Source of the DNA: a virus
Taxonomy: Duplodnaviria > Heunggongvirae > Uroviricota > Caudoviricetes
Virus record (IMG/VR): IMGVR_UViG_2648501839_000008
Reading direction: 5' to 3' (one strand)
DNA: 64,000 bases
The first letter of the stretch is position 1, and the number at the start of each line of letters is the position of its first letter. A program made the position numbers and the translations under genes. This document shows positions 1,950 to 63,168 of this stretch, one piece after another. The notes under the pieces were generated by a model. The model worked only from the letters and a program-made list of their open reading frames with translations. It had not been told where the DNA came from and searched no databases.

Positions 1950-3644
1950 TTAATTATTAAGCAATCTGCTCACACGTAGTTTGTTAAGACTTGATCTAGA
2001 GGCCAGTTTCGTTAATGCACCTATTGCTTTATTCGTGATTTTTTGCTGTTCTTCTGTTAGTTCTTGCATACTTTTGAATCTGAGCAACCCCTTTCTCACT
2101 AAATCCAAAGCATCCTGATTGCGGGATAGTATCCACTTTAAATAATCATCTTCAGAGAAACTGTTAAGATATGCTATGTCACTATGATTAAATTTGCCTT
2201 CAATTATTTTGTATAAAACATTCTCTAAATTAGTCTCTTCAGGCTTCTTATCCATCAATTTTTTTTGAATTAGCAGACCTAACTTTTCGTTACCAAATAT
2301 CTCTACATACAAATTCCGAAAAGCAGTATAAGCATCATCTTGGCTAACAAAGGCATCTGCATATGCCTCTATATAACTATCACAATCAATCTCCAATCTA
2401 TTTAAGATATCAATCAAGCCTATGAAGTGAGCAACAGGTATGTGTGAAAGATTGTCGTTAATTACACATTTTATCTTAGAAATAAACTCAGATTCATTGT
2501 CCTTGAATGAGTCACTAAAAATATCCCAAACATTGTTAACATCACATAAAGCCTTGTGTTCTTTATATTGTTTATTTTTTTCTTCTATTATACCTCGAAT
2601 ATTGCTTTCAGTAGAAAGATAACCATTCTTGAGATAAAAATCTATGTCATCATCGAAAGCAATTTCCGCTCGTTCATAAATAACATCAAGACTATTAATA
2701 AATGAATATACAGAATCATCCTTTTTATCATCTAACATGTAATCAAATACATGTATGTTTTTAATTGATTCTTTAAACAAGGCATAATCAACACCTGGAA
2801 CACCAGAATAGTAAACCACTGAAAACAGAACCAATCTATTGATAAAACTTTCTCTAACCTTATCCTCTGCCAAGCTTAGCTCATTCCTAAGATTAACCAG
2901 AGATGTTTTTATTTTATTTAATATACGGATATTTTTAATGCCTAAGTCATTTGCTAAGACTTTTAACAAAAGAAAATCAGAATCAGTTTCATAAAAAACT
3001 TTACGTAAGTTCTTCTCAGGCGTAGGATCGTATTTTATTTCGACATCAATTACTTTTTCTCTGTACTCTAAAAACTGTTTTTTTGCAGTTTCATCATGTA
3101 AATTATCTTCATTTAAAATTAGAACAACTTTGCAACCTTTTCTTCTTGCTAATTCATCAATTACCCCCATAATTTCTTTAACTTCTAGCGAATTACCTTT
3201 TCTTTCAACATCATCAATACAAACCAAATAATTATTAACAAATTTATACTCAAGAGATGACAGCAGGTTATCTGTTTTGAACCCAAAAAAATCGTTCTTT
3301 CCGAAATGTATTAAAAATTTTGACAAGGAGTTGTATTTCAACCATCCCCAAAACCCATTTCTATAACGAATCATAGTTCGATCCGTTTCAGATAAAATTA
3401 GTTCTTTATATTTCTTTTCATTAATTGGTGTGGCACAATGATAAAGAGCTTTTTTAATATCACCAATAGAGTTAACCCCAAACAAAGAAACATACGAATA
3501 TGCATTAAAATCTAATCCTTCAGAATGCTTAGTATAAAAACTATTCCAATAATGAGTTTTACCAACGCCCCAATCTCCTTTTATGACGGCAACCCGATGA
3601 TCTGAAACTAGAAAATTTTTTAGAAATGATTCTATCGATTCCAT
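1950..3644 (-). CDS. KAP-family P-loop NTPase (candidate defence or abortive-infection protein), AT-rich cargo gene
   Basis: N-terminal Walker A VIKGDWGVGKTH, Walker B-like LVCIDDVERKG about 140 aa later, long helical C-terminal region; AT-rich codon usage unlike neighbours; probable ATG at 3644 with AAAGGA RBS (track start 3653 is TTG). Confidence 0.55.
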   Translation of the reverse strand: MESIESFLKNFLVSDHRVAVIKGDWGVGKTHYWNSFYTKHSEGLDFNAYSYVSLFGVNSIGDIKKALYHCATPINEKKYKELILSETDRTMIRYRNGFWGWLKYNSLSKFLIHFGKNDFFGFKTDNLLSSLEYKFVNNYLVCIDDVERKGNSLEVKEIMGVIDELARRKGCKVVLILNEDNLHDETAKKQFLEYREKVIDVEIKYDPTPEKNLRKVFYETDSDFLLLKVLANDLGIKNIRILNKIKTSLVNLRNELSLAEDKVRESFINRLVLFSVVYYSGVPGVDYALFKESIKNIHVFDYMLDDKKDDSVYSFINSLDVIYERAEIAFDDDIDFYLKNGYLSTESNIRGIIEEKNKQYKEHKALCDVNNVWDIFSDSFKDNESEFISKIKCVINDNLSHIPVAHFIGLIDILNRLEIDCDSYIEAYADAFVSQDDAYTAFRNLYVEIFGNEKLGLLIQKKLMDKKPEETNLENVLYKIIEGKFNHSDIAYLNSFSEDDYLKWILSRNQDALDLVRKGLLRFKSMQELTEEQQKITNKAIGALTKLASRSSLNKLRVSRLLNN

Positions 3645-3695
3645 TAGTATCAATCCTTTAATTCATATATTGGGCGTAACAAACGCCCAATATAA

Positions 3696-4055
3696 TCAAC
3701 CTTTCTTCATCAACTCTCGTTTAATTTCATCGGTACGCATCGTAACGTCGGCAGCTGTGATCGCCTCGTTAAGCTTCACGATGTCCTCGATTTCCTGCGG
3801 TGACTTCTCTGCCAGATGGAAAATGGCTGCTCGAATCACGTCAGAACGAGTGAACTTCTCGAAGCGAGGGATGAACTTCATCATCTCCAGCAGTTCGAAG
3901 TATTCGTCTTCCAGTGACATTGTGCGGCTTTTAATTTTCTCTTTGCCACGAGTCGGGCGTCCCTGTGGTCTGACTGGTTGGCGCAAAGGAGTTGTGTTCT
4001 TAGCCGGTGCATCAGGCTCTTTGCGCTTTGCTAGGTCACCCATTTTCATGGACAT
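3696..4055 (-). CDS. ParG-like ribbon-helix-helix partition protein
   Basis: 119 aa, basic disordered N-terminus plus C-terminal RHH-like segment; start overlaps parA stop (TAATG coupling). Confidence 0.45.
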   Translation of the reverse strand: MSMKMGDLAKRKEPDAPAKNTTPLRQPVRPQGRPTRGKEKIKSRTMSLEDEYFELLEMMKFIPRFEKFTRSDVIRAAIFHLAEKSPQEIEDIVKLNEAITAADVTMRTDEIKRELMKKG

Positions 4056-4723
4056 TATTCTTCTTCCTCCAGACTCAACAGATAATCTACAAATTCTTCA
4101 AACTCGGCTTCAGCCTTTTTGTCGCGCTCGCTACCGGTCATTTCGAAGATAGAACGACCAGACTCTTCCGCATCATCGTAGACGTTGCGGTTATATAGAT
4201 TGACTGGCGCAGACTCGATGCCAAACGTCTCGACAATCTCTTTAGCCGCCAGAATGCGAGACACTTGTGATGGCAAAGCCGGGCACTGGTTCATGACCGC
4301 GCGGACCTTCACTTTATCGTTTACATTACGAACATTGTCGATAATAGGATCGATGTCACGCAGAGATTTCAAATCACGACGCTTAGGACGAAGCGGGATA
4401 ATGATAACGTCGGCCATCAGCATCGCTTGTCGCTGAATTTCGGAGTCAAAGCCACCAGCATCTACCACTACAAACTCAGCTCTACCCTGAAGCGATTTTA
4501 GGTGCTTAATGATGTCATCCTGGACGTATGCAAAAGGAATCAGCTCAAGGTCTTCGTTCTGTCGACGGTCTTCACACCAGCTCGTTGTCGTGCGCTGAAT
4601 ATCTATATCGGTAATATAAACCTTCTTCTTCTTTTTGACTTTCAGGCAAACGGCAATTTGCTGGGCAACGGTGGATTTGCCAGGCCCGCCCTTTGTGCCG
4701 CCAACCACAAAGATCTTGGTCAT
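4055..4723 (-). CDS. parA: ParA/MinD-family partition ATPase
   Basis: Deviant Walker A GGTKGGPGKST at the N-terminus; 222 aa, small type-Ib ParA size; RBS AAGGGA. Confidence 0.7.
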   Translation of the reverse strand: MTKIFVVGGTKGGPGKSTVAQQIAVCLKVKKKKKVYITDIDIQRTTTSWCEDRRQNEDLELIPFAYVQDDIIKHLKSLQGRAEFVVVDAGGFDSEIQRQAMLMADVIIIPLRPKRRDLKSLRDIDPIIDNVRNVNDKVKVRAVMNQCPALPSQVSRILAAKEIVETFGIESAPVNLYNRNVYDDAEESGRSIFEMTGSERDKKAEAEFEEFVDYLLSLEEEE

Positions 4724-49845: not shown

Positions 49846-51879
49846 TTACTTAACCTGGTGGCCAGGTTTAGCACCAGCATCCGGGCTTAACAGGAAGATA
49901 TCTTTCCCGCCGGGGCCAGCAGCCATCACCATACCTTCGGAGATGCCGAAGCGCATCTTACGCGGAGCCAGGTTAGCCACCATAATGGTGTGACGACCAA
50001 TCAGTGCCTGTGGGTCTGGATAAGCAGAACGGATGCCTGAGAAGACATTGCGTTTTTCACCGCCGAGATCCAGCGTCAGGCGCAGCAGTTTGTCAGAACC
50101 TTCAACAAACTCTGCGTTTTCGATCAGTGCCACGCGCAGGTCAACTTTGGCAAAGTCGTCAAAGGTGATGGTTTCCTGAATCGGGTCGTCTGCCAGCGGG
50201 CCAGTAACTGGCGCGGCAGTAGCTTTCACTTCTTCTTTAGACGCTTCCACCAATGCTTCCACCTGTTTCATGTCGATACGGTTATACAGTGCTTTGAACG
50301 GATTCACTTTATGGCCCAGCAGCGGTTGCTGGATGCCATCCCAGGTCAGTTCCGTATTCAGGAATGCTTCCGCACGTTCTGTCAGTTTCGGCAGTACCGG
50401 TTTCAGGTAAGTCATCAGCACGCGGAACAGGTTGATGCCCATTGAGCAAATCGCCTGCAGGTCAGCATCGCGACCTTCCTGTTTTGCGACTACCCAAGGA
50501 GCCTGCTCGTCGACATAGCGGTTAGCCAGGTCAGCCAGTGCCATGATTTCACGGATAGCTTTACCAAATTCGCGGCTTTCCCACGCTTCACCAATCACTT
50601 CAGCGGCATCAGTGAAGGTTTTGTACAACTGCGGGTCAGCCAGCTCGCTTGCCAGCACACCGTCAAAACGCTTATTGATAAAGCCAGCGTTACGGGACGC
50701 CAGGTTAACCACTTTGTTCACGATATCGGCATTCACACGCTGAACGAAATCCTCCAGGTTGAGATCGATATCATCAATGCGCGAAGAGAGTTTCGCAGTG
50801 TAGTAGTAACGCAGGCTGTCAGCGTCAAAATGATTCAACCAGGTGCTGGCTTTAATAAAGGTGCCGCGAGACTTGGACATCTTCGCGCCGTTCACCGTCA
50901 CATAGCCGTGAACAAACAGGTTGGTCGGCTTGCGGAAGTTGCTGCCTTCCAGCATGGCAGGCCAGAACAGGCTGTGGAAGTAAACGATATCTTTACCGAT
51001 GAAGTGGTACAGCTCGGCGGTGGAGTCTTTCTTCCAGTATTCATCGAAGCTGGTAGTGTCGCCGCGCTTGTCGCACAGATTCTTGAAGGAACCCATGTAG
51101 CCAATCGGTGCGTCCAGCCAGACGTAGAAATATTTACCCGGCGCGTTCGGAATTTCAAAACCGAAGTAAGGTGCGTCGCGGGAGATATCCCACTGTTGCA
51201 GACCAGATTCAAACCACTCCTGCATTTTGTTTGCCACCTGCTCCTGCAACGCACCGCTGCGGGTCCATGCCTGCAACATTTCGCTGAAAGAGGGCAGATC
51301 AAAGAAGAAGTGTTCAGAATCACGCATTACCGGGGTAGCACCAGAAACCACCGATTTCGGCTCGATCAGTTCAGTCGGGCTGTAGGTCGCGCCGCAAACT
51401 TCACAGTTATCGCCGTATTGATCTGGCGCTTTACATTTCGGGCAGGTGCCTTTCACAAAACGATCCGGCAGGAACATGCCTTTTTCCGGGTCGTACAACT
51501 GAGAGATAGTGCGATTTTTAATAAAACCGTTCTCTTTCAGGCGAGTATAGATAAGCTCAGACAACTGACGGTTCTCTTCGCTGTGCGTCGAGTGATAGTT
51601 GTCATAGCTGATGTTAAAGCCTGCGAAATCAGTCTGGTGTTCCTGACTCATTTCGCCAATCATCTGCTCCGGTGTGATACCAAGTTGCTGTGCTTTCAGC
51701 ATGATCGGCGTACCGTGGGCATCGTCGGCACAGATGAAATTAACCTCGTGGCCGCGCATTCGCTGGTAACGAACCCAGACATCAGCCTGGATGTGCTCCA
51801 GCATATGGCCGAGGTGGATTGAGCCGTTAGCGTACGGCAGCGCGCACGTCACCAGAATTTTCTTCGCGACTTGGGTCAT
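49846..51879 (-). CDS. metG: Methionyl-tRNA synthetase
   Basis: 677-aa translation from [26 protein letters not shown] (HIGH-type motif) through KMSKS to the C-terminal tRNA-binding domain; enterobacterial MetRS; true ATG at 51877-51879 (track ORF extended upstream). Confidence 0.95.
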
Positions 51880-52036
51880 AGTAGGCATTACTTCTTTGTA
51901 GTGAAAAGGGGCTTGATAGTAACAAAATGGCCTTATGTCTGCCATGTGATAACAGCATTTCTCATAAATGATTAAATGTCGCAGCTGGAGTACACTACAA
52001 GGCGACAATTGCGCAAATTAAAATAAAGGAGACGGG

Positions 52037-53137
52037 ATGAGCGAGTCCAAATCGCCGGATGCCCTGAGAGCAATGGTAGCCGGTACGCTGGCTAATTTTC
52101 AGCACCCAACCCTGAAACACAACCTGACTACGCTTAAAGCGTTACACCATGTTGCGTTGATGGATGACACACTGCATGTCGAACTAATCATGCCTTTCGT
52201 GTGGAATAAGCCTTTTGAAGACCTGAAAGAGCAATGTAGTGGTGATCTGCTCCGTATCACTGGCGCAAAGGCTATTGACTGGAAGCTGTCGTACAACATT
52301 GCCACGCTTAAGCGCGTCAAAAACCAACCAGGCATTAATGGTGTTAAGAATATTATCGCCGTAAGCTCAGGCAAGGGCGGTGTAGGCAAATCGTCCACAG
52401 CAGTAAACTTGGCACTGGCTTTGGCTGCTGAAGGTGCGAAAGTTGGTATTTTGGATGCCGATATCTATGGTCCATCAATTCCAACCATGCTGGGCGCGGA
52501 AAACCAACGTCCAACCTCACCTGACGGTACTCACATGGCACCTATCATGTCTCATGGCCTGGCAACCAACTCTATTGGTTATCTGGTCACCGACGACAAT
52601 GCAATGGTGTGGCGTGGACCGATGGCCAGCAAGGCGCTGATGCAGATGTTGCAGGAAACTCTATGGCCTGATCTGGACTATCTCGTTCTCGATATGCCGC
52701 CGGGCACTGGTGATATTCAGTTGACGCTGGCGCAGAACATTCCTGTAACTGGTGCGGTTGTGGTAACTACGCCGCAAGACATCGCGCTGATCGATGCGAA
52801 GAAAGGCATTGTGATGTTCGAAAAAGTCGAAGTGCCGGTACTAGGTATCGTCGAAAACATGAGTGTGCATATTTGCAGTAACTGCGGTCATCACGAGCCA
52901 ATTTTTGGCACCGGTGGCGCACAGAAACTGGCCGAGAAATACAACACGCAGTTGTTAGGCCAAATGCCACTTCATATCTCTCTTCGTGAAGATCTGGATA
53001 ACGGAACACCAACCGTTATTAGTCGTCCAGATAGCGAATTTACGGCTATTTATCGTGACCTCGCAGATCGCGTTGCTGCCCAAATGTATTGGCAAGGTGA
53101 AGTAATACCTGGCGAAATCGCATTCCGCGCAGTGTGA
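52037..53137 (+). CDS. apbC: Fe-S cluster carrier ATPase ApbC/Mrp
   Basis: Deviant Walker A SGKGGVGKSS, CxxC motif ...HICSNCGHH..., divergent from metG as in enterobacterial chromosomes; RBS AAGGAG. Confidence 0.9.
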   Translation: MSESKSPDALRAMVAGTLANFQHPTLKHNLTTLKALHHVALMDDTLHVELIMPFVWNKPFEDLKEQCSGDLLRITGAKAIDWKLSYNIATLKRVKNQPGINGVKNIIAVSSGKGGVGKSSTAVNLALALAAEGAKVGILDADIYGPSIPTMLGAENQRPTSPDGTHMAPIMSHGLATNSIGYLVTDDNAMVWRGPMASKALMQMLQETLWPDLDYLVLDMPPGTGDIQLTLAQNIPVTGAVVVTTPQDIALIDAKKGIVMFEKVEVPVLGIVENMSVHICSNCGHHEPIFGTGGAQKLAEKYNTQLLGQMPLHISLREDLDNGTPTVISRPDSEFTAIYRDLADRVAAQMYWQGEVIPGEIAFRAV

Positions 53138-55682: not shown

Positions 55683-55867
55683 TAGGCAGCTCTCTCAACA
55701 ACAAGCAATTCGTCGTAGTCATAATCAGTTTCGGAACCATCCGTACCGAACAGAGTCACTTTGTCATTTTCCATCCAAAAAGATTTAACCGCACATTGTT
55801 GACCTTTAGATGTTATGAGCACATCACCAGGGATTACGTCTTCAGCGCGAACCTCTAGTGTTCTCAT
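55682..55867 (-). CDS. Small hypothetical protein (61 aa)
   Basis: ORF track; coupled overlaps on both sides. Confidence 0.3.
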
Positions 55868-56745
55868 CGTGCTGCCCCCTCTTTGGTGAAAATACCTGCT
55901 GCAATGCTGTTTATGATGCTGTCAGTGCATGGAGTAGAAAGCTGGGCATCTCCAGCAATTTTCATGACCTCAACATCCGCATATCGAATACCGAGGTGTA
56001 TCAGACCGGCTATACCTGACTTAAGTCGAACATTTTCCATAAACAGATCTTTTTCCCGCTGTTTAGCGGCTTCCAACTCCATCGACAATTTTTCCAACTG
56101 CTCTTTATGCTTCTTGTATTCCTGATACGCGTGCCAAGACTGACCTTTGCGCACACTATCAGTGATATCAGCAACCTGCTCTGGTGTTAGCGTGGTCAGT
56201 GGCTGTGATGGAAAAATCATCACTTGCCCGGCATCCCAATCAAAACCCGCCTTAATTGACTGAACCTCAACTGATGGTGTTGAACCGATGCGACCAGGCG
56301 AATGAACAACGATCGTTACATCCATATCGCGACGATGGCTGTGGTTGTTGGACAAAATACGATTCACCAACTCAGAAAATTTGGATAATTTCATGCTGAT
56401 CCCTCTTTCTCTCCCCGGATAATTCTGTTGCACACATCCACACTCGTCGCAGATGAAAACGGCGTCCCCAGCAATTAACTTTTTGACGGCGTACTGGGAT
56501 TTGTTGCAGAAGCTGCAACAAAGTGTTCGCCTGACTGATAAGGATGGAGCGCCAGATGTCAGCCGCTCCATATCGTTCTTGCGACGCAATATCACACGGC
56601 TGAACTCAACCAGTTTCTCCGGGGATATCTCCTCCTCCGTAGCGAGCGTCTCTAGTCGTTCGAGTATGTTGAAGGCTTTTTCTTGGTAATAGCAGAGTGC
56701 GATGTGGTCATTTTCTTTCACCTTCAATGTTCGTGGCGCTGGCAA
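55864..56745 (-). CDS. Protein with ClpX-type C4 zinc ribbon
   Basis: ...[29 protein letters not shown]... resembles the ClpX N-terminal zinc-binding domain. Confidence 0.4.
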
Positions 56746-57109
56746 GATTGTCCTTGCGAAGAAGAGCGGCTATGCGCTTACTTCCATCCGAGATAACGCC
56801 CTCGTAATACTCACGCTGCTCGTTGAGTTTTGATTTTGCCAACTCCAGTTGTTTTGTTAGTTCCGCAATACGGCAAACATCGTTGATACGCGTTTCCTCT
56901 AATGCGTTGATCTCATCCAGTAGTGCCAGCACGGTTTCTGGTCCGGCCAGAAATTTGAAGGCGTTGAGGGCATCAATATCAACACCGCTATCTTTAAGTT
57001 CCTGTTCGCTTATCAGATCATCATCAACTGGCAACATTAACAGGCGTTCCATTGCCGGAATTGCACGCTCTGCCGCCTCACGCAGTGCCTGATAGTCAAT
57101 CTTGCTCAC
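56708..57109 (-). CDS. Hypothetical coiled-coil protein (133 aa)
   Basis: ORF track. Confidence 0.35.
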
Positions 57110-57606
57110 TGGATGACTCCTTTACGAAGCTGTTCAGCAATACTTACGCATATCTCTGCGCCTCTAATCAGCCCCGGAACGTTCTTGTTTGGCCCAACTT
57201 CACCATCAACAAAATCAATCATCGCGTTACGAGCCATATCCACGCCCTGCGCACGTACTTCAGCCAGAAAAGCATCGGTGGCTGGAGTCTCCGTTAATTC
57301 GCTAACCCAATTATCTCCGTGTTCCTCGGCACACATCGCATCGAATGCTCGCTCAGATTCTTTCAGGGCTGCATTCTCCGCCGCTAATGCGTCTCTCTGC
57401 GCTCGCAACTTCTCAATTTCGGCAGCCATGTAGTAACCAACCATAGCGAAAGTGGCGAAAGGGTAGTCAGAATCATCAGGAGATACGGAGGCCATTAGCA
57501 GACCATCGTGCATGTTCTGGCTTCCATCAGTGATGGATACCGCATAAGAATCGCTGGTTTCCCGTTTATACAATACGACGACCGGGTTCTTGATTTTCTC
57601 TCTCAT
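57106..57606 (-). CDS. Hypothetical protein (166 aa)
   Basis: ORF track. Confidence 0.35.
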   Translation of the reverse strand: MREKIKNPVVVLYKRETSDSYAVSITDGSQNMHDGLLMASVSPDDSDYPFATFAMVGYYMAAEIEKLRAQRDALAAENAALKESERAFDAMCAEEHGDNWVSELTETPATDAFLAEVRAQGVDMARNAMIDFVDGEVGPNKNVPGLIRGAEICVSIAEQLRKGVIQ

Positions 57607-58160
57607 TACGATGCCTCTAACTTATCTAACTCTTTCAGCCCTTCACGTACCGCGTTCACAATGCGTTCCAGATACTGGTATTTCGGGTTTGGTACCGTTG
57701 GCCAGTCGGCATACCACGGATCATCACCAAAGAGATTCAGCAGTTTGTTACCGACGCCGAAACAACAGCAGCTTTCTTTTACGTCATCGGCGTTTTCCGC
57801 CTCGTCCCACATTTCACGAGCCAGTACGGCGTCGATTTCTCTCTCTCTTCGTAACTTTATGATTTCTGACTTCACGAAAAGCAGATTTGCATCGTTGTCA
57901 TCGTCGACCGTGCTTCGCAGTTGAGAGTCGAAATAGCCGATTAGATACTCGTTGCTGACCCGCTTAATGAACGTCTGCACATCATCACCGCCCATAGCAA
58001 ACCAAGCCGCAGTCCACGCTTTTCCGTAGCAGATGATGGTGATTCTTCCCTTACCAGGTTCGTAGTTTTCAATCATTACTCGAACCGGATCGAGGCGTTC
58101 CAGATCCGTCAGCACAAAGGAAAGAACATCTATTTTTTCGACCTTCATGCAGCCTCCCAC
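57606..58160 (-). CDS. Hypothetical protein (184 aa)
   Basis: ORF track. Confidence 0.35.
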   Translation of the reverse strand: MGGCMKVEKIDVLSFVLTDLERLDPVRVMIENYEPGKGRITIICYGKAWTAAWFAMGGDDVQTFIKRVSNEYLIGYFDSQLRSTVDDDNDANLLFVKSEIIKLRREREIDAVLAREMWDEAENADDVKESCCCFGVGNKLLNLFGDDPWYADWPTVPNPKYQYLERIVNAVREGLKELDKLEAS

Positions 58161-58786
58161 GCGCTCCAGATCAGCGATTTGTGTTTTTCATAACGTTTGA
58201 TGTGTACCGGTTTCAGAAGCGCAATACCTTCAGTGACTTTCGCCATTGCGCTTAATAGCAACGGGTGTTCTATTCCTATCCTCTCCATGTACTCGACAAC
58301 ATCAGCGTTGGCACCAATCTCTTTGCCGTGAAAGAGTACGTCCAGCATCAGTTCTTTCTCTGCGAGGTAGACAGCTGAAAACTCGGGATCGCGACTCACG
58401 ATAGAAGAGGTATTGTCGAGCAGGTCAGCCAGCTTGATCATGCGCGTCTGCATGTCGAGATTTTGCTCCAGCTCCAGGACATTGATGATGAAACGCTGTA
58501 TTCGATTGCCGTCTTCTGGCCTTGCAATGTTGGTCAGAGCCTGAACCATTTCAGCTACGCGCTCACCGAAGTGATCACGAACCATCTCTATGGTTACATG
58601 GGTGTCTTCGACCACATCATGCAGAAGCGCCGCGATTTGCATCTCCACGGTTCCGTCATGCAATGCAACAATCTCTCGGACAGCAACCGGGTGGTTGATG
58701 TAGTCTTCGCCGGTATATTTTCTTTTCTGACCAACGCCACCATGAGCGCCAGCGGCGAACATATGAGCTTCGGAAATACTAGACAT
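58145..58786 (-). CDS. HD-domain hydrolase, SpoT/RelA-hydrolase-like (small alarmone hydrolase candidate)
   Basis: ...HPVAVREIVALHDGTVEMQIAALLHDVVEDT... matches the HD motif arrangement of (p)ppGpp hydrolase domains. Confidence 0.55.
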   Translation of the reverse strand: MSSISEAHMFAAGAHGGVGQKRKYTGEDYINHPVAVREIVALHDGTVEMQIAALLHDVVEDTHVTIEMVRDHFGERVAEMVQALTNIARPEDGNRIQRFIINVLELEQNLDMQTRMIKLADLLDNTSSIVSRDPEFSAVYLAEKELMLDVLFHGKEIGANADVVEYMERIGIEHPLLLSAMAKVTEGIALLKPVHIKRYEKHKSLIWSAWEAA

Positions 58787-58795
58787 TCTTAACTC

Positions 58796-58854
58796 CGTTG
58801 TTTTCTAGTTGTGGTTATTTTCACAAATAAGAAAAGGTAGAAAACAATTTATTT
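58796..58854 (-). promoter_or_regulatory. Class-A sites upstream of the nine-gene early operon
   Basis: ccgttgttttct + gttgtggttattttcac + gaaaacaatttattt. Confidence 0.5.
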
Positions 58855-58905
58855 AAGGCCACAACTTATGGCCTTTATTTATTCATGCCGAAGGATTTGT
58901 AGCGT

Positions 58906-59286
58906 CTAATTGCCGGATAAAATGGGGTGAGGTGCTTGCCAGTAGGCTCCACCGGTCCATGTGAACCCCATGCGAATAAGAGTGTTTATTGCGGCTTTGG
59001 TAGACTCCGATTCGACACTGGCTTTTCGAAACTCTTGAACCTCTTTCGCCAACTTGTATGTAATTGTGCAGGGGACGATTGCAGCCCAGCCTTTCTCATG
59101 ACTGTTAATGACCATCTGGATGTGACCATCCAGAATAGGTTGATTAGGCATGTTATTGAAAATGTCTGCCTGTTTTTGAATGTGAAGAAAAAGCCTTGCC
59201 AGCTCCATTTGCTCACTACGAGACAAGGGATTATCAAGAGGGCTTTTTGCAAAAGCGGCTATACGCTGTGCGTCAATGCCAAACAT
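58906..59286 (-). CDS. Hypothetical protein (126 aa)
   Basis: ORF track. Confidence 0.35.
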   Translation of the reverse strand: MFGIDAQRIAAFAKSPLDNPLSRSEQMELARLFLHIQKQADIFNNMPNQPILDGHIQMVINSHEKGWAAIVPCTITYKLAKEVQEFRKASVESESTKAAINTLIRMGFTWTGGAYWQAPHPILSGN

Positions 59287-59990
59287 CAGCGCACCTCACC
59301 ATCTTTATGGCTGGAGTTAACTTCCGCCATTAAATGTCTGACGTAATCGACAAGAGAGCCACCTGGTGGAATCTGGCATTCCTCAACTAACTGGAAGTAG
59401 ATATCCGCTGCATTACGTGTATTGCTACCCGCACATATTCTTTCTTCCCGAAGTGCATGAAGCTCGTTGATCAAACGGTCACACTCTCCGTTACGCTGAT
59501 CCACAACGGCCTCAAGCTCTGCGACGCGTTCACCTGGCGTCTTACCTTCTTTGCGTTGGATGGTAACGACGAAATCGCCAATTGCAGAGACGTTGTAATC
59601 CAGCTCAAGGTAGTTTTTGGCACCGCTGCGGACGAACTCACCCGCGAACATGGTGGCGAACATCGCAGAGGCCACTTCGCCGTTGAAAAGTGACTCAAGA
59701 TCTAACGGAGTCCCGGCAGCAAGAGCCTCTTTTGCTGTATCCATTGCATCCATGAACCGATCAAACTCACTAGCGCGCTTTTCCAGGTCTTTCCATTGCT
59801 CGCTCCAACGTTTGGCAACGAAGTCTATGAATGTTTTCGCGGATTCATCAAAATTCCCCTCAAACTTAACGATGCCTTTATCAATAATGATCTGGCCTAC
59901 CGCATCCTCTGCATAACCTTTCAATGTAAACTTGAAAGGAAAATCAGAATGGCCTGTGACGTTAAAATGCTCTAACTGGAGGTTGTTCAT
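59286..59990 (-). CDS. Hypothetical protein (234 aa)
   Basis: ORF track. Confidence 0.35.
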   Translation of the reverse strand: MNNLQLEHFNVTGHSDFPFKFTLKGYAEDAVGQIIIDKGIVKFEGNFDESAKTFIDFVAKRWSEQWKDLEKRASEFDRFMDAMDTAKEALAAGTPLDLESLFNGEVASAMFATMFAGEFVRSGAKNYLELDYNVSAIGDFVVTIQRKEGKTPGERVAELEAVVDQRNGECDRLINELHALREERICAGSNTRNAADIYFQLVEECQIPPGGSLVDYVRHLMAEVNSSHKDGEVR

Positions 59991-60032
59991 GTGTTTTTCT
60001 CTTATCGTTTAGCCACTAAATTCTTACACAAA

Positions 60033-60053
60033 TTAAGTAAGTATTTACCTATC
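60033..60053 (-). promoter_or_regulatory. Class-B palindromic site
   Basis: ttaagtaagtatttacctatc. Confidence 0.4.
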
Positions 60054-61737
60054 ATTTAACGCGTTTGAAAACGTATACGCTGACTGTGATCCCTGTGTCT
60101 TCAAACTCGTTGGTAAACGACTTCCCTCTGGCATAAACGTAATTATCCATCGTCATCCAGTCCAGTATTGGCGCAGTGCCCGGCAATACTGCTACAAGAC
60201 GCCCGCCGACTTTCAGATGCCCCAGCGCAGCCATCGTGTGCTCTCTATGACGACCAAGCGAGTACGGCGGGTTCATAACGATTTTGTCGAACTGATAACC
60301 TGCGTTGTCCTCAGACCACTTTATGAAGTCGCAGCAAATCGTGTTCGTATACCCTTTTCCACGCAGGATATCAGCGAAGAGAGGTGCGATTTCTATGCAG
60401 GTAACATCTTCCAGATCGGCGTTAATATAGGCCAGAAGATCCCCACGTCCGGCTTGAGGCTCCAGCAGCTTCTCACCAGACTTCAATTCAGTGGCTCTGG
60501 CAACGTACTCAGCAATCAAGCGTGGGGTAGGGTAGAACTGGTGTGATTTAGTATCCGGTATTAAACCGGTAGCCACAATCGTATTTAGCGTATGGCCGAT
60601 GTCATACGGGAACTGCCAGTGCTTTTTCTCCTGCACGCCGCCAATGAAGCTCAGTGTGCGCTCAAGCTCTTCCACCTGCGACTTCTGGAGAGCTGAATCA
60701 GAGAAGTACCATACGCCTTTGTCTTTGCTCAATCGCCCGTCACGAAGCGCAGTGCGAACCGGCACAGAGATCGTCTTCTGGATTAACCCGAACTGCTTTG
60801 GTGCCCGTGTTTTTGGCGCAGTTCGGCATGGCGCGGGGATTGCAGCAGGCATACTGTAAGCCAGCACCTCATTCAACTTCCAGGCCACGTCAGGATGTAT
60901 TTCAAAGTGAACGTTGCCGTTCTTGAACATCTTCACGCGCATCAGATTTCCATCGACGTTCATCCAGTCACCGGTCTGGCAGTCGTTTGCCCTATACGCA
61001 GCTGATAGCACCTCAGCAGTGCGGTTGATGGTAATAAATTCTTTGTGCGCGAAGAAATGAAGCAAGACACGCAGATCGTCGATGTAGTCCTCTTTGCGAT
61101 AGTTCACGCTAACGCTGTCCCGCCAGAAATCAGAAATGCAGTCAGCGATTATCAGCCGCTCGCTGAAACCGTTTGTCTTATTTGTCTTGTGCGCAGGACT
61201 CAGCGCCTTAAACAAGCCATACACGCGCTCAGAGAGATATTTGTGCCTGTCATTCAGCAAATTAAGCATCGTGGGTATGACCGTTTCTGCTTTGAACTCC
61301 GGTACACCAACGAACTCTTTAACCTTCATCTGGTAGCCGGTTCTGTCAGTTTTGATGACTTCCTGTTTGCCCTCTATAAACTGCTCGCGCCACTCATCTC
61401 GACGGGAAGCTGGCATGATCAGCAAAACGTTAGTCATGTCCGTGACCTTCCTCCAGTACTCGGCCCAAATATTCTGTTTCACCCATTCCAGATCGACTTT
61501 ATCCAACCAACCTCGATTTAAACGCGAGCGATCTTCATCTGGTCGATGGTTTAGTCTCAGCAGGCGATTAATCATGTTGTGGCGTTCGTCGCCATAAACG
61601 AAGTCGTGTACCTGATACATGAAGGCGATCTCTTTCTCGCACTCGGCCACGATTTCGTGGATGACATTCATTTCCTGACGATAGTCGATAGCCGTGTTTG
61701 AGCTGGCATCGTCGATGATAGAAAGGGCTGTATTCAT
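60052..61737 (-). CDS. N6-adenine DNA methyltransferase with large N-terminal domain
   Basis: Motif I-like LEPQAGRGDLL and motif IV NPPY in the C-terminal about 200 aa; 561 aa. Confidence 0.65.
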   Translation of the reverse strand: MNTALSIIDDASSNTAIDYRQEMNVIHEIVAECEKEIAFMYQVHDFVYGDERHNMINRLLRLNHRPDEDRSRLNRGWLDKVDLEWVKQNIWAEYWRKVTDMTNVLLIMPASRRDEWREQFIEGKQEVIKTDRTGYQMKVKEFVGVPEFKAETVIPTMLNLLNDRHKYLSERVYGLFKALSPAHKTNKTNGFSERLIIADCISDFWRDSVSVNYRKEDYIDDLRVLLHFFAHKEFITINRTAEVLSAAYRANDCQTGDWMNVDGNLMRVKMFKNGNVHFEIHPDVAWKLNEVLAYSMPAAIPAPCRTAPKTRAPKQFGLIQKTISVPVRTALRDGRLSKDKGVWYFSDSALQKSQVEELERTLSFIGGVQEKKHWQFPYDIGHTLNTIVATGLIPDTKSHQFYPTPRLIAEYVARATELKSGEKLLEPQAGRGDLLAYINADLEDVTCIEIAPLFADILRGKGYTNTICCDFIKWSEDNAGYQFDKIVMNPPYSLGRHREHTMAALGHLKVGGRLVAVLPGTAPILDWMTMDNYVYARGKSFTNEFEDTGITVSVYVFKRVK

Positions 61738-61750
61738 AATTACACCATTA

Positions 61751-61784
61751 AATAATTTGTTTTCTGATTGGTGTAATTATCGCA
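61751..61784 (-). promoter_or_regulatory. Class-A site
   Basis: aataatttgttttct + gtgtaattatcgca (TGCGATAAT on the minus strand). Confidence 0.5.
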
Positions 61785-61839
61785 AACTTGAAAAGGCATA
61801 AAAGCTGCATTCATAGGCGTTACAGCAGATTTAAGGCGT

Positions 61840-61861
61840 AAAAATGGGGGCTTTCGCCCCC
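61840..61861 (-). terminator. Rho-independent terminator (minus strand)
   Basis: GGGGGCGAAAGCCCCC followed by ATTTTT on the minus strand. Confidence 0.6.
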
Positions 61862-61878
61862 TGTCGACTGGTGCAGTA

Positions 61879-62445
61879 TTAGAGTGCGTATTGCGTTTTG
61901 TGCGGCTGCTTATTCAAGTCATGGCGATGCGTGAGCTCCCGCATCATGTCTTCAAGGCGACTCTTTGTGTCGTCGAGCTGGTCGGCCATTGCACCTAAAA
62001 GCTGGCGAACGGCCATCGGATCGTCGCTGTTTAGTGATGGCATTTTATAACCTGCTTTAGAAGACATAAGGTTGATTGCAGACATCAACATCGTTAGAGA
62101 GGATTTAAGCCCGGCAATTTCACGATCTTTGCTGGCAATAATCGTCTCACTTTTGTTACCGTCATCAGTTCCTTGAGTCTCGCTCACCATATCCAAAGTC
62201 GCTTGCAACTTATCAGCTCTCTCTTTTTCAGCAAGGTAATGAACACCGAAATGGTGTGCCAAAGCTACAATCTGAGTTGGCTCTTCAAAGGTGGAATTAA
62301 AATTAAGTATTGTAAACAGTCTCTCAAATATGGAAACGTCTTCTATTCCTCGAAGAATGGATAACATTTTGACAAGTTCATTAGCATCCATTTCTTCGAA
62401 TAGGGCGTTTTGTTCATCAGCTATTGCTTTGCATTTCTCGCACAT
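61879..62445 (-). CDS. Hypothetical protein (188 aa)
   Basis: ORF track. Confidence 0.35.
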   Translation of the reverse strand: MCEKCKAIADEQNALFEEMDANELVKMLSILRGIEDVSIFERLFTILNFNSTFEEPTQIVALAHHFGVHYLAEKERADKLQATLDMVSETQGTDDGNKSETIIASKDREIAGLKSSLTMLMSAINLMSSKAGYKMPSLNSDDPMAVRQLLGAMADQLDDTKSRLEDMMRELTHRHDLNKQPHKTQYAL

Positions 62446-62463
62446 GTGTTTTCCTTAATGCTT

Positions 62464-62499
62464 AAACAAGTTGTTTTCTTATTGGTTTTATTGTGATGT
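62464..62499 (-). promoter_or_regulatory. Class-A site
   Basis: aaacaagttgttttct + ttggttttattgtgatg. Confidence 0.5.
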
Positions 62500-62584
62500 G
62501 GCATATAAGGGGAGCAAGCTAAACGTAAAGGTGCAAACTCTCTATTTCGGTCAACGAAACACAAGGGCCAAATGGCCCTTGTCA

Positions 62585-62743
62585 TTAACACTTTGCTTTA
62601 CGAACTAACGGATAAGCGAAGTAGATCGCCAAACCAATGAGGACGCCATCAGAAATGACAGACATCATCTTTCCCGTAAAATCCACCAACACCGCCATCA
62701 CCAGAAGAGCAATGACGATCACAAGCCGGAATCTCTCAAGCAT
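62585..62743 (-). CDS. Small hydrophobic peptide (52 aa, two predicted TM segments), not in the ORF track
   Basis: Hand translation MLERFRLVIVIALLVMAVLVDFTGKMMSVISDGVLIGLAIYFAYPLVRKAKC; ATG overlaps the TerB-like stop (TAATG). Confidence 0.35.
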   Translation of the reverse strand: MLERFRLVIVIALLVMAVLVDFTGKMMSVISDGVLIGLAIYFAYPLVRKAKC

Positions 62744-63168
62744 TAGAGATAAGCATCCAGTGACAACTGAAGCGCCTGGGCGATCTTTTTCAGTGCCTGC
62801 TCTTCTTGTTCACCAATGCCGTCCTGATCGGCAATATCAAGGCACAGACACAGAACATCGACCGCCTCTGGAGTACCCGCAATATCAGACAGCTCACGAA
62901 TAGCCTGTGCATTAGCAGAACGAGGGGACGCTTCGTAACGAGCACGGATATTGGCGCTCATTTGGGCAATTTCACCAGCAAACGGAGAAAACGCAGGCAG
63001 AGCTGCAATTGTCTTCTCAAGAATGGCAATTTCTTTTGCGTCACATGTGCCGTCGGCATAGGAGATCATGTACGCGCCCCACACGGTGGCCTCAACCGCA
63101 TCACGGTTCTCCATTTTTTTGACTTCGATAACTGCTTTACGAGTTTTCTTTTTGAAGAAACCTAACAT
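62743..63168 (-). CDS. TerB-like domain protein
   Basis: 141 aa with TerB-like paired acidic helices (...YADGTCDAKEIAILE... and ...DIADQDGIGEQEEQALKKIAQ...). Confidence 0.45.
   Translation of the reverse strand: MLGFFKKKTRKAVIEVKKMENRDAVEATVWGAYMISYADGTCDAKEIAILEKTIAALPAFSPFAGEIAQMSANIRARYEASPRSANAQAIRELSDIAGTPEAVDVLCLCLDIADQDGIGEQEEQALKKIAQALQLSLDAYL

Follow-up and report, generated by a model that had tools for sequence, protein, structure and literature searches.

We regard it as very probable that a 213-aa protein encoded in the window (the whole 64,000-nucleotide stretch of DNA analysed here) is the Escherichia phage-plasmid orthologue of PaSpo, a small alarmone hydrolase (SAH) of Salmonella phage SSU5, and that it works by the mechanism and in the counter-defence role set out below. 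A preliminary description of this DNA had proposed a stand-alone alarmone hydrolase that counters toxSAS-type defences. That interpretation is supported, yet it was already known, being backed by experiment for an orthologue with 87% identity. Papers of 2020–2021 already cover the family, its phage origin, the neutralisation of every tested toxSAS and the counter-defence hypothesis, and laboratories now use PaSpo routinely as a tool.

The window belongs to an SSU5-like phage-plasmid of Escherichia; the region matches phages CMS-2020a, PhiR41_1 and Cyrano as well as Salmonella phage SSU5, and terminase, tail fibre, helicase and S24-peptidase genes are also present. The 213-aa reading frame of the preliminary description was recovered with exactly the same limits, on the minus strand and with the quoted motif in place (Table 1), whereas the opposite (plus) strand of this interval is riddled with stops when translated. 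The peptide quoted at that stage, HPVAVREIVALHDGTVEMQIAALLHDVVEDT, represents residues 32–62 of the protein. A spacer of 119 nt separates the SAH gene from a 126-aa gene upstream, and the hairpin within it might serve as a weak terminator or in RNA processing. A promoter/terminator scan of positions 57000–62800 gave no excess over shuffled sequence (5 versus 7.3 expected; 5 versus 6.2) and is uninformative on operon structure or timing, because the sites are no more numerous than in shuffled sequence. Nothing in the DNA itself supports the early operon of the preliminary description.

Table 1. Features discussed in the text, numbered from the first nucleotide of the window.
Feature	Position	Strand	Remarks
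SAH CDS	58145..58786	minus	213 aa, ATG to stop; very probably the PaSpo orthologue
Ribosome-binding site GGAG	58793..58796	minus	read from sequence; 6 nt 5' of the SAH ATG
GC-rich palindromic hairpin	58855..58875	unassigned	terminator-like scan match on the + strand, in the 119-nt spacer
HD_4 (RSH hydrolase) core, residues 8–134	58385..58765	minus	Pfam envelope
R22 codon	58721-58723	minus	within HD_4 core
H32 codon	58691-58693	minus	within HD_4 core
H56-D57 codons	58616-58621	minus	within HD_4 core
E60-D61 codons	58604-58609	minus	within HD_4 core
D121 codon	58424-58426	minus	within HD_4 core
N125 codon	58412-58414	minus	within HD_4 core
C-terminal helical region, residues 135–213	58148..58384	minus	completes the helical fold in the AF2 model
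180-aa gene downstream of SAH	57606..58148	minus	PHROG 3451 'phiTE_072 family', E=7e-89
234-aa upstream protein	59286..59990	minus	
561-aa DUF4942 protein	60052..61737	minus	
293-aa zinc-finger protein	55864..56745	minus	
567-aa ORF	1950..3653	minus	
metG	49846..52008	minus	
apbC/mrp	52037..53137	plus	

Sequence profiles and the structural model together identify the 213-aa protein as a hydrolase-only enzyme of the RSH superfamily, that is, a small alarmone hydrolase. Pfam HD_4 matches residues 8–134 with 63 bits (E=3.4e-17), well over its curated gathering cut-off of 27.2 bits, and the NCBIfam model TIGR00691 (spoT_relA) matches with E=3.6e-24, through profile positions 1-123 of 687 only; the HMM scan for HD_4 and the SpoT hydrolase that had been suggested as a check thus bears the assignment out. 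PHROG 990 ('metal-dependent phosphohydrolase') also matches, with E=1.7e-54. HD_4 and the generic HD model are the only Pfam matches in the 213 aa, and synthetase, TGS and ACT domains are absent in the Pfam and NCBIfam profile searches of the protein, which agrees with its earlier characterization as stand-alone. In the PDB, all sequence matches above noise are RSH hydrolases: SpoT, the Rel proteins of M. tuberculosis and T. thermophilus, human and fly MESH1, Lmo0812, the SAHs of P. aeruginosa, C. glutamicum and Leptospira, and the (p)ppApp hydrolase Aph1. These matches end near residue 150.

The roles of the RSH motif residues are established from Rel-Seq and MESH1. In the window protein R22, H32, H56-D57, E60-D61, D121 and N125 align one-to-one with MESH1 (human, 3nr1), SpoT and Rel, and all of them are invariant in an alignment of 69 homologues that reaches down to ∼ 45% identity. 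The H...HD...D arrangement of the preliminary description holds in part. H32 and H56-D57 are indeed conserved, but the earlier HD of the quoted peptide (H43-D44) is coincidental, the SSU5 orthologue having HG at the same place, and D121 lies far outside that peptide.

An AF2 model built on the alignment of the 69 homologues is all-helical and of high confidence (mean pLDDT 97.2, pTM 0.93). Its C-terminal part consists of helices 134-152, 161-170, 175-189 and 193-212, each with pLDDT > 90, the last being a long extra helix that closes the C-terminus. The model superposes on solved RSH hydrolases, and every one of its 50 top-ranked Foldseek hits among PDB entries is a hydrolase domain of MESH1, SAH, Rel or SpoT, the list being headed by human MESH1 (3nr1_A; TM 0.82, target-normalised; rmsd 2.5 Å; 26% identity). 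The best homology, in PDB sequence and in fold, is therefore to RSH hydrolases and not to unrelated HD phosphohydrolases, the outcome that had been named beforehand as fatal to the RSH assignment. The dN/dS ratio against SSU5 is 0.10 in the catalytic core and 0.32 in the C-terminal 75 residues, and the region 135–213 is more diverged than the HD_4 core. By this measure the core is under purifying selection and the C-terminal part is less so.

These data bear on the proposal that the protein belongs to an unrelated group of HD phosphohydrolases (dNTPases, nucleotidases or phosphodiesterases) or is a relic without activity, which we judge extremely improbable. The generic Pfam HD model does match weakly (26 bits), and decayed relatives exist (P0009, P0010, P0012; see below), but HD_4 and spoT_relA far outscore generic HD, the PDB matches and the best 50 fold matches are RSH hydrolases throughout, and the present copy is intact, with every motif residue kept and a core under purifying selection. 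We rejected an assignment to an unrelated HD family, since both the profile scores and the fold matches point to RSH hydrolases.

The bacterial SAHs of P. aeruginosa (6yvc) and C. glutamicum (RelH, 7qod) and Aph1 (7smg) share its fold and motifs at 21-28% identity, but are chromosomal or toxin-linked. MESH1 of human and Drosophila, the closest solved fold, likewise rescues toxSAS toxicity and de-pyrophosphorylates tRNA; it is a eukaryotic protein of ∼ 179 aa, whereas the window SAH has ∼ 30 more C-terminal residues, which form a further helix. A role as an NADPH phosphatase has been proposed for human MESH1. By analogy, the natural substrate of the window SAH could be another 3'-phosphorylated metabolite such as NADPH or PAPS, with both of which MESH1 has been solved in complex (5vxa, 9chy), and RSH chemistry is known to be versatile. 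We consider this improbable: toxSAS rescue by the orthologue requires removal of the 3'-pyrophosphate from (pp)pApp and tRNA, and all residues that match the (p)ppGpp hydrolase motifs are kept.

The assignment to the PaSpo subfamily rests on identity and synteny with SSU5_099 (AFL47026.1 / YP_006906731.1), which is 87% identical to the window SAH over 213 of 213 residues without a gap. The two proteins have the same length and every catalytic residue in common, and 19 of the 28 substitutions between them fall within the last 75 residues. Gene order is shared as well: a DUF4942 methyltransferase, a ∼ 230-aa gene, one or more small genes, the SAH and an ATGA-coupled PHROG 3451 gene follow one another in both, although SSU5 has an additional Eaa gene upstream. 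Both elements are SSU5-like phage-plasmids, the host being Escherichia here and Salmonella for SSU5. In 2012 SSU5_099 was annotated as 'putative guanosine polyphosphate pyrophosphohydrolase/synthetase'. It is the sole RSH-type gene in the SSU5 annotation of 1-100 kb, and tblastn finds one place per record; the other nucleotide hydrolase of SSU5, SSU5_080, carries the annotation of a nucleotide pyrophosphohydrolase and not that of an RSH-type HD protein. Because the annotation holds no other RSH-type gene, SSU5_099 is, by elimination, almost certainly the 'PaSpo' of the literature.

Co-expressed in E. coli, PaSpo neutralised all five toxSAS tested, CapRel, PhRel2, FaRel2, PhRel and FaRel (Jimmy et al., 2020, Table 1; PMC7229694). 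The toxin-rescue experiment that the preliminary description had proposed is thus already positive in published work, for the 87%-identical SSU5 orthologue rather than for the window protein, and the idea that such an enzyme counters toxSAS is found in the same paper (PMC7229694), whose discussion proposes phage SAHs as counter-defence. PbcSpo of Salmonella phage PVP-SE1 is likewise a stand-alone phage SAH that neutralises five of five toxSAS tested (PMC7229694); its authors place it in an SAH subfamily separate from PaSpo, and we set it apart on that description. According to Kurata et al. [quoted passage not shown] PaSpo appears in that study solely as a co-expressed detoxifier, which also serves the expression of PhRel2, and it was co-expressed for the production of CapRel-SJ46 (Zhang et al., 2022). 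Merely leaky expression of PaSpo detoxifies FaRel2. Our literature searches found no in vitro assay of purified PaSpo (ppGpp, pppGpp, (p)ppApp or tRNA), no infection experiment with versus without any phage SAH and no study of the SAH in SSU5-like elements.

By homology, the window SAH would be a divalent-metal (Mn2+)-dependent hydrolase, with the metal held by H32, H56, D57 and D121 and the substrate positioned and activated by R22, E60-D61 and N125. We infer that it takes (p)ppGpp and (p)ppApp as substrates and removes their 3'-pyrophosphate; the pyrophosphorylated 3'-CCA end of tRNA is most likely a further substrate. Such an enzyme would be toxin-agnostic, a universal toxSAS neutraliser, because it would destroy the products and would not bind the toxins. 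CapRel-type abortive-infection effectors should be among the toxSAS that it neutralises, and an element equipped with the SAH would then replicate, or persist as a plasmid, in hosts that bear such defences. CapRel-type systems occur in Salmonella phage SJ46, in E. coli prophages, in Enterobacter and in Klebsiella. The SAH gene is found in these same genera, and the overlap renders counter-defence ecologically plausible.

The same chemistry would fit ordinary control of (p)ppGpp equally well, and it is possible, if short of probable, that the SAH lowers housekeeping (p)ppGpp, preventing or reversing the stringent response in lytic growth or tuning the growth of the host that carries the element as a plasmid prophage; this is compatible with counter-defence. 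Phage can be restricted by the stringent response, against which phages have other countermeasures (bioRxiv 10.64898/2026.01.27.700999), Jimmy et al. drew a link between phage infection and alarmone accumulation (PMC7229694), and the SAH is plasmid-borne in E. coli in every case, which makes expression during carriage conceivable. Yet E. coli already possesses SpoT, neutralisation of toxSAS is the sole phenotype demonstrated for the orthologue, and a patchy cassette in a mosaic accessory region resembles an arms-race gene more than a core takeover function.

Alternatively, the SAH could be the antitoxin or immunity protein for a synthetase toxin of its own element. Pairs of this kind (ATfaRel/FaRel, Aph1/MuF-Apk2) exist in phages and prophages (PMC12226406; PMC7229694), and Aph1 (7smg) is a detectable homologue of the window SAH. 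ATfaRel of Cellulomonas marina, a type IV antitoxin, is moreover like PaSpo a promiscuous neutraliser that degrades toxSAS products, but its gene adjoins that of its toxin, FaRel, whereas the window SAH has no adjacent synthetase. Profile searches of the genes flanking the SAH revealed no RelA_SpoT synthetase domain, and ten further ORFs of the window, head-module proteins included, contain neither a synthetase nor a toxin domain. Neither these parts of the 64-kb portion of the element nor the SSU5 annotation of 1-100 kb contains a toxSAS or Apk synthetase, and PaSpo is termed 'stand-alone' in the literature (PMC7229694). As no synthetase gene lies nearby, the SAH does not look like a cis antitoxin, and we think self-immunity very improbable. 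We return to counter-defence as the favoured role; what counts against it is that the gene is dispensable: Cyrano, PhiR41_1 and CMS-2020a lack it, and other elements have it in a decayed or chimeric form.

The SAH gene lies within a stretch of > 10 kb in which small accessory genes, among them those for Ead/Ea22, DUF551 and ClpX-zinc-finger proteins, all run in the same direction on the minus strand. The start codon of the 180-aa gene downstream overlaps the SAH stop codon (ATGA), as it does in SSU5, and the two genes are probably translationally coupled, to judge from this overlap. We considered the 180-aa protein as an obligate partner of the SAH and rejected it, as the PHROG 3451 family occurs in many phages that have no SAH match; it gave nothing in Pfam, NCBIfam or PADLOC searches. 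PHROG 3451 is split in the window, the 234-aa upstream protein corresponding to positions 13-101 and the 180-aa downstream protein to positions 105-282. Either the SAH and the 126-aa gene were inserted or recombined into an ancestral module, or the PHROG itself is chimeric.

Among the SAH and six neighbours, PADLOC returned only methyltransferase-type matches, all of the 561-aa protein (mad2/MTase_II-like). This protein, encoded two genes 5' of the SAH, combines an N-terminal DUF4942 domain with a C-terminal SAM-methyltransferase and matches PHROG 6263 'DNA methyltransferase'; it could act as an orphan methylase with an anti-restriction role. In the same accessory array, a 293-aa protein carries a ClpX-type C4 zinc finger (Pfam zf-C4_ClpX, E=2e-10). 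Elsewhere in the window, a 567-aa ORF matches Pfam KAP_NTPase weakly (E=1.5e-5, 24.9 bits versus a cut-off of 20). KAP NTPases turn up in defence contexts.

The SAH gene is patchily distributed. PLSDB holds it on 144 plasmids (49 Escherichia, 41 Enterobacter, 39 Salmonella, 14 Citrobacter), and the genes that adjoin it upstream on 271 (170 Escherichia). It occurs in 44 of 5,426 complete E. coli genomes, plasmid-borne each time; in the same genomes the metG of the element is found 222 times on plasmids. By these counts the SAH is present in between about a fifth and a third of the SSU5-like elements of E. coli. The window protein is 98% identical to a cluster of 705 member sequences (P0001), its gene has 99.7% DNA identity to E. 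coli plasmid genes named 'HD domain-containing protein', and among phage records SSU5 alone contains a close homologue. The name PaSpo-type SAH could be given to hundreds of database copies that now go under 'HD domain-containing protein', 'GTP pyrophosphokinase' or 'metal-dependent phosphohydrolase'.

In Cyrano (3030..4099) and PhiR41_1 (3348..4373), 'Eae-like/Ea22' genes replace the SAH and its coupled gene (window 57606..58905). The block of methyltransferase, 234-aa and 126-aa genes is kept in both phages, and the swap follows a spacer of ∼ 120-140 nt like that of the window. The spacer after the 126-aa gene is thus a clear cassette-swap point in a mosaic region.

Several homologues of the SAH from other SSU5-like elements are decayed or chimeric. 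In P0010, an E. coli protein that goes by the name 'AAA family ATPase', SAH residues ∼ 60-213 are joined to an N-terminus with a P-loop. In the Enterobacter types P0012-P0014, an N-terminus like that of the window's 234-aa upstream protein is fused to SAH residues ∼ 75-213, and in P0009 the HD dyad is changed to HG. Each of these types (P0009, P0010, P0012-P0014) lacks at least one metal ligand. Together with the patchy distribution, such naturally decayed variants form a comparative set that bears on whether an SAH allows a real phage to escape CapRel-type immunity.

A broader role can be imagined, although we think it rather unlikely: in SSU5-like phage-plasmids the SAH may be a mobile 'universal antidote', often gained and lost in conflicts between elements. 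With expression both in lytic growth and from the resident plasmid, it would shield element and host from product-based RSH toxins, among them CapRel of competing prophages (e.g. the P1-like SJ46), MuF-Apk2 and T6SS (p)ppApp synthetases. Alongside the element's diverged methionyl-tRNA synthetase, the SAH might be one component of a toolkit guarding the tRNA and translation pool. The gene for this full-length tRNA synthetase, metG, forms a divergent pair with apbC/mrp, and the same divergent pair is annotated in a closely related E. coli plasmid. The plasmid metG has ∼ 94% DNA identity to chromosomal metG and is a 100% match to a 113-kb plasmid of strain FMU073332.
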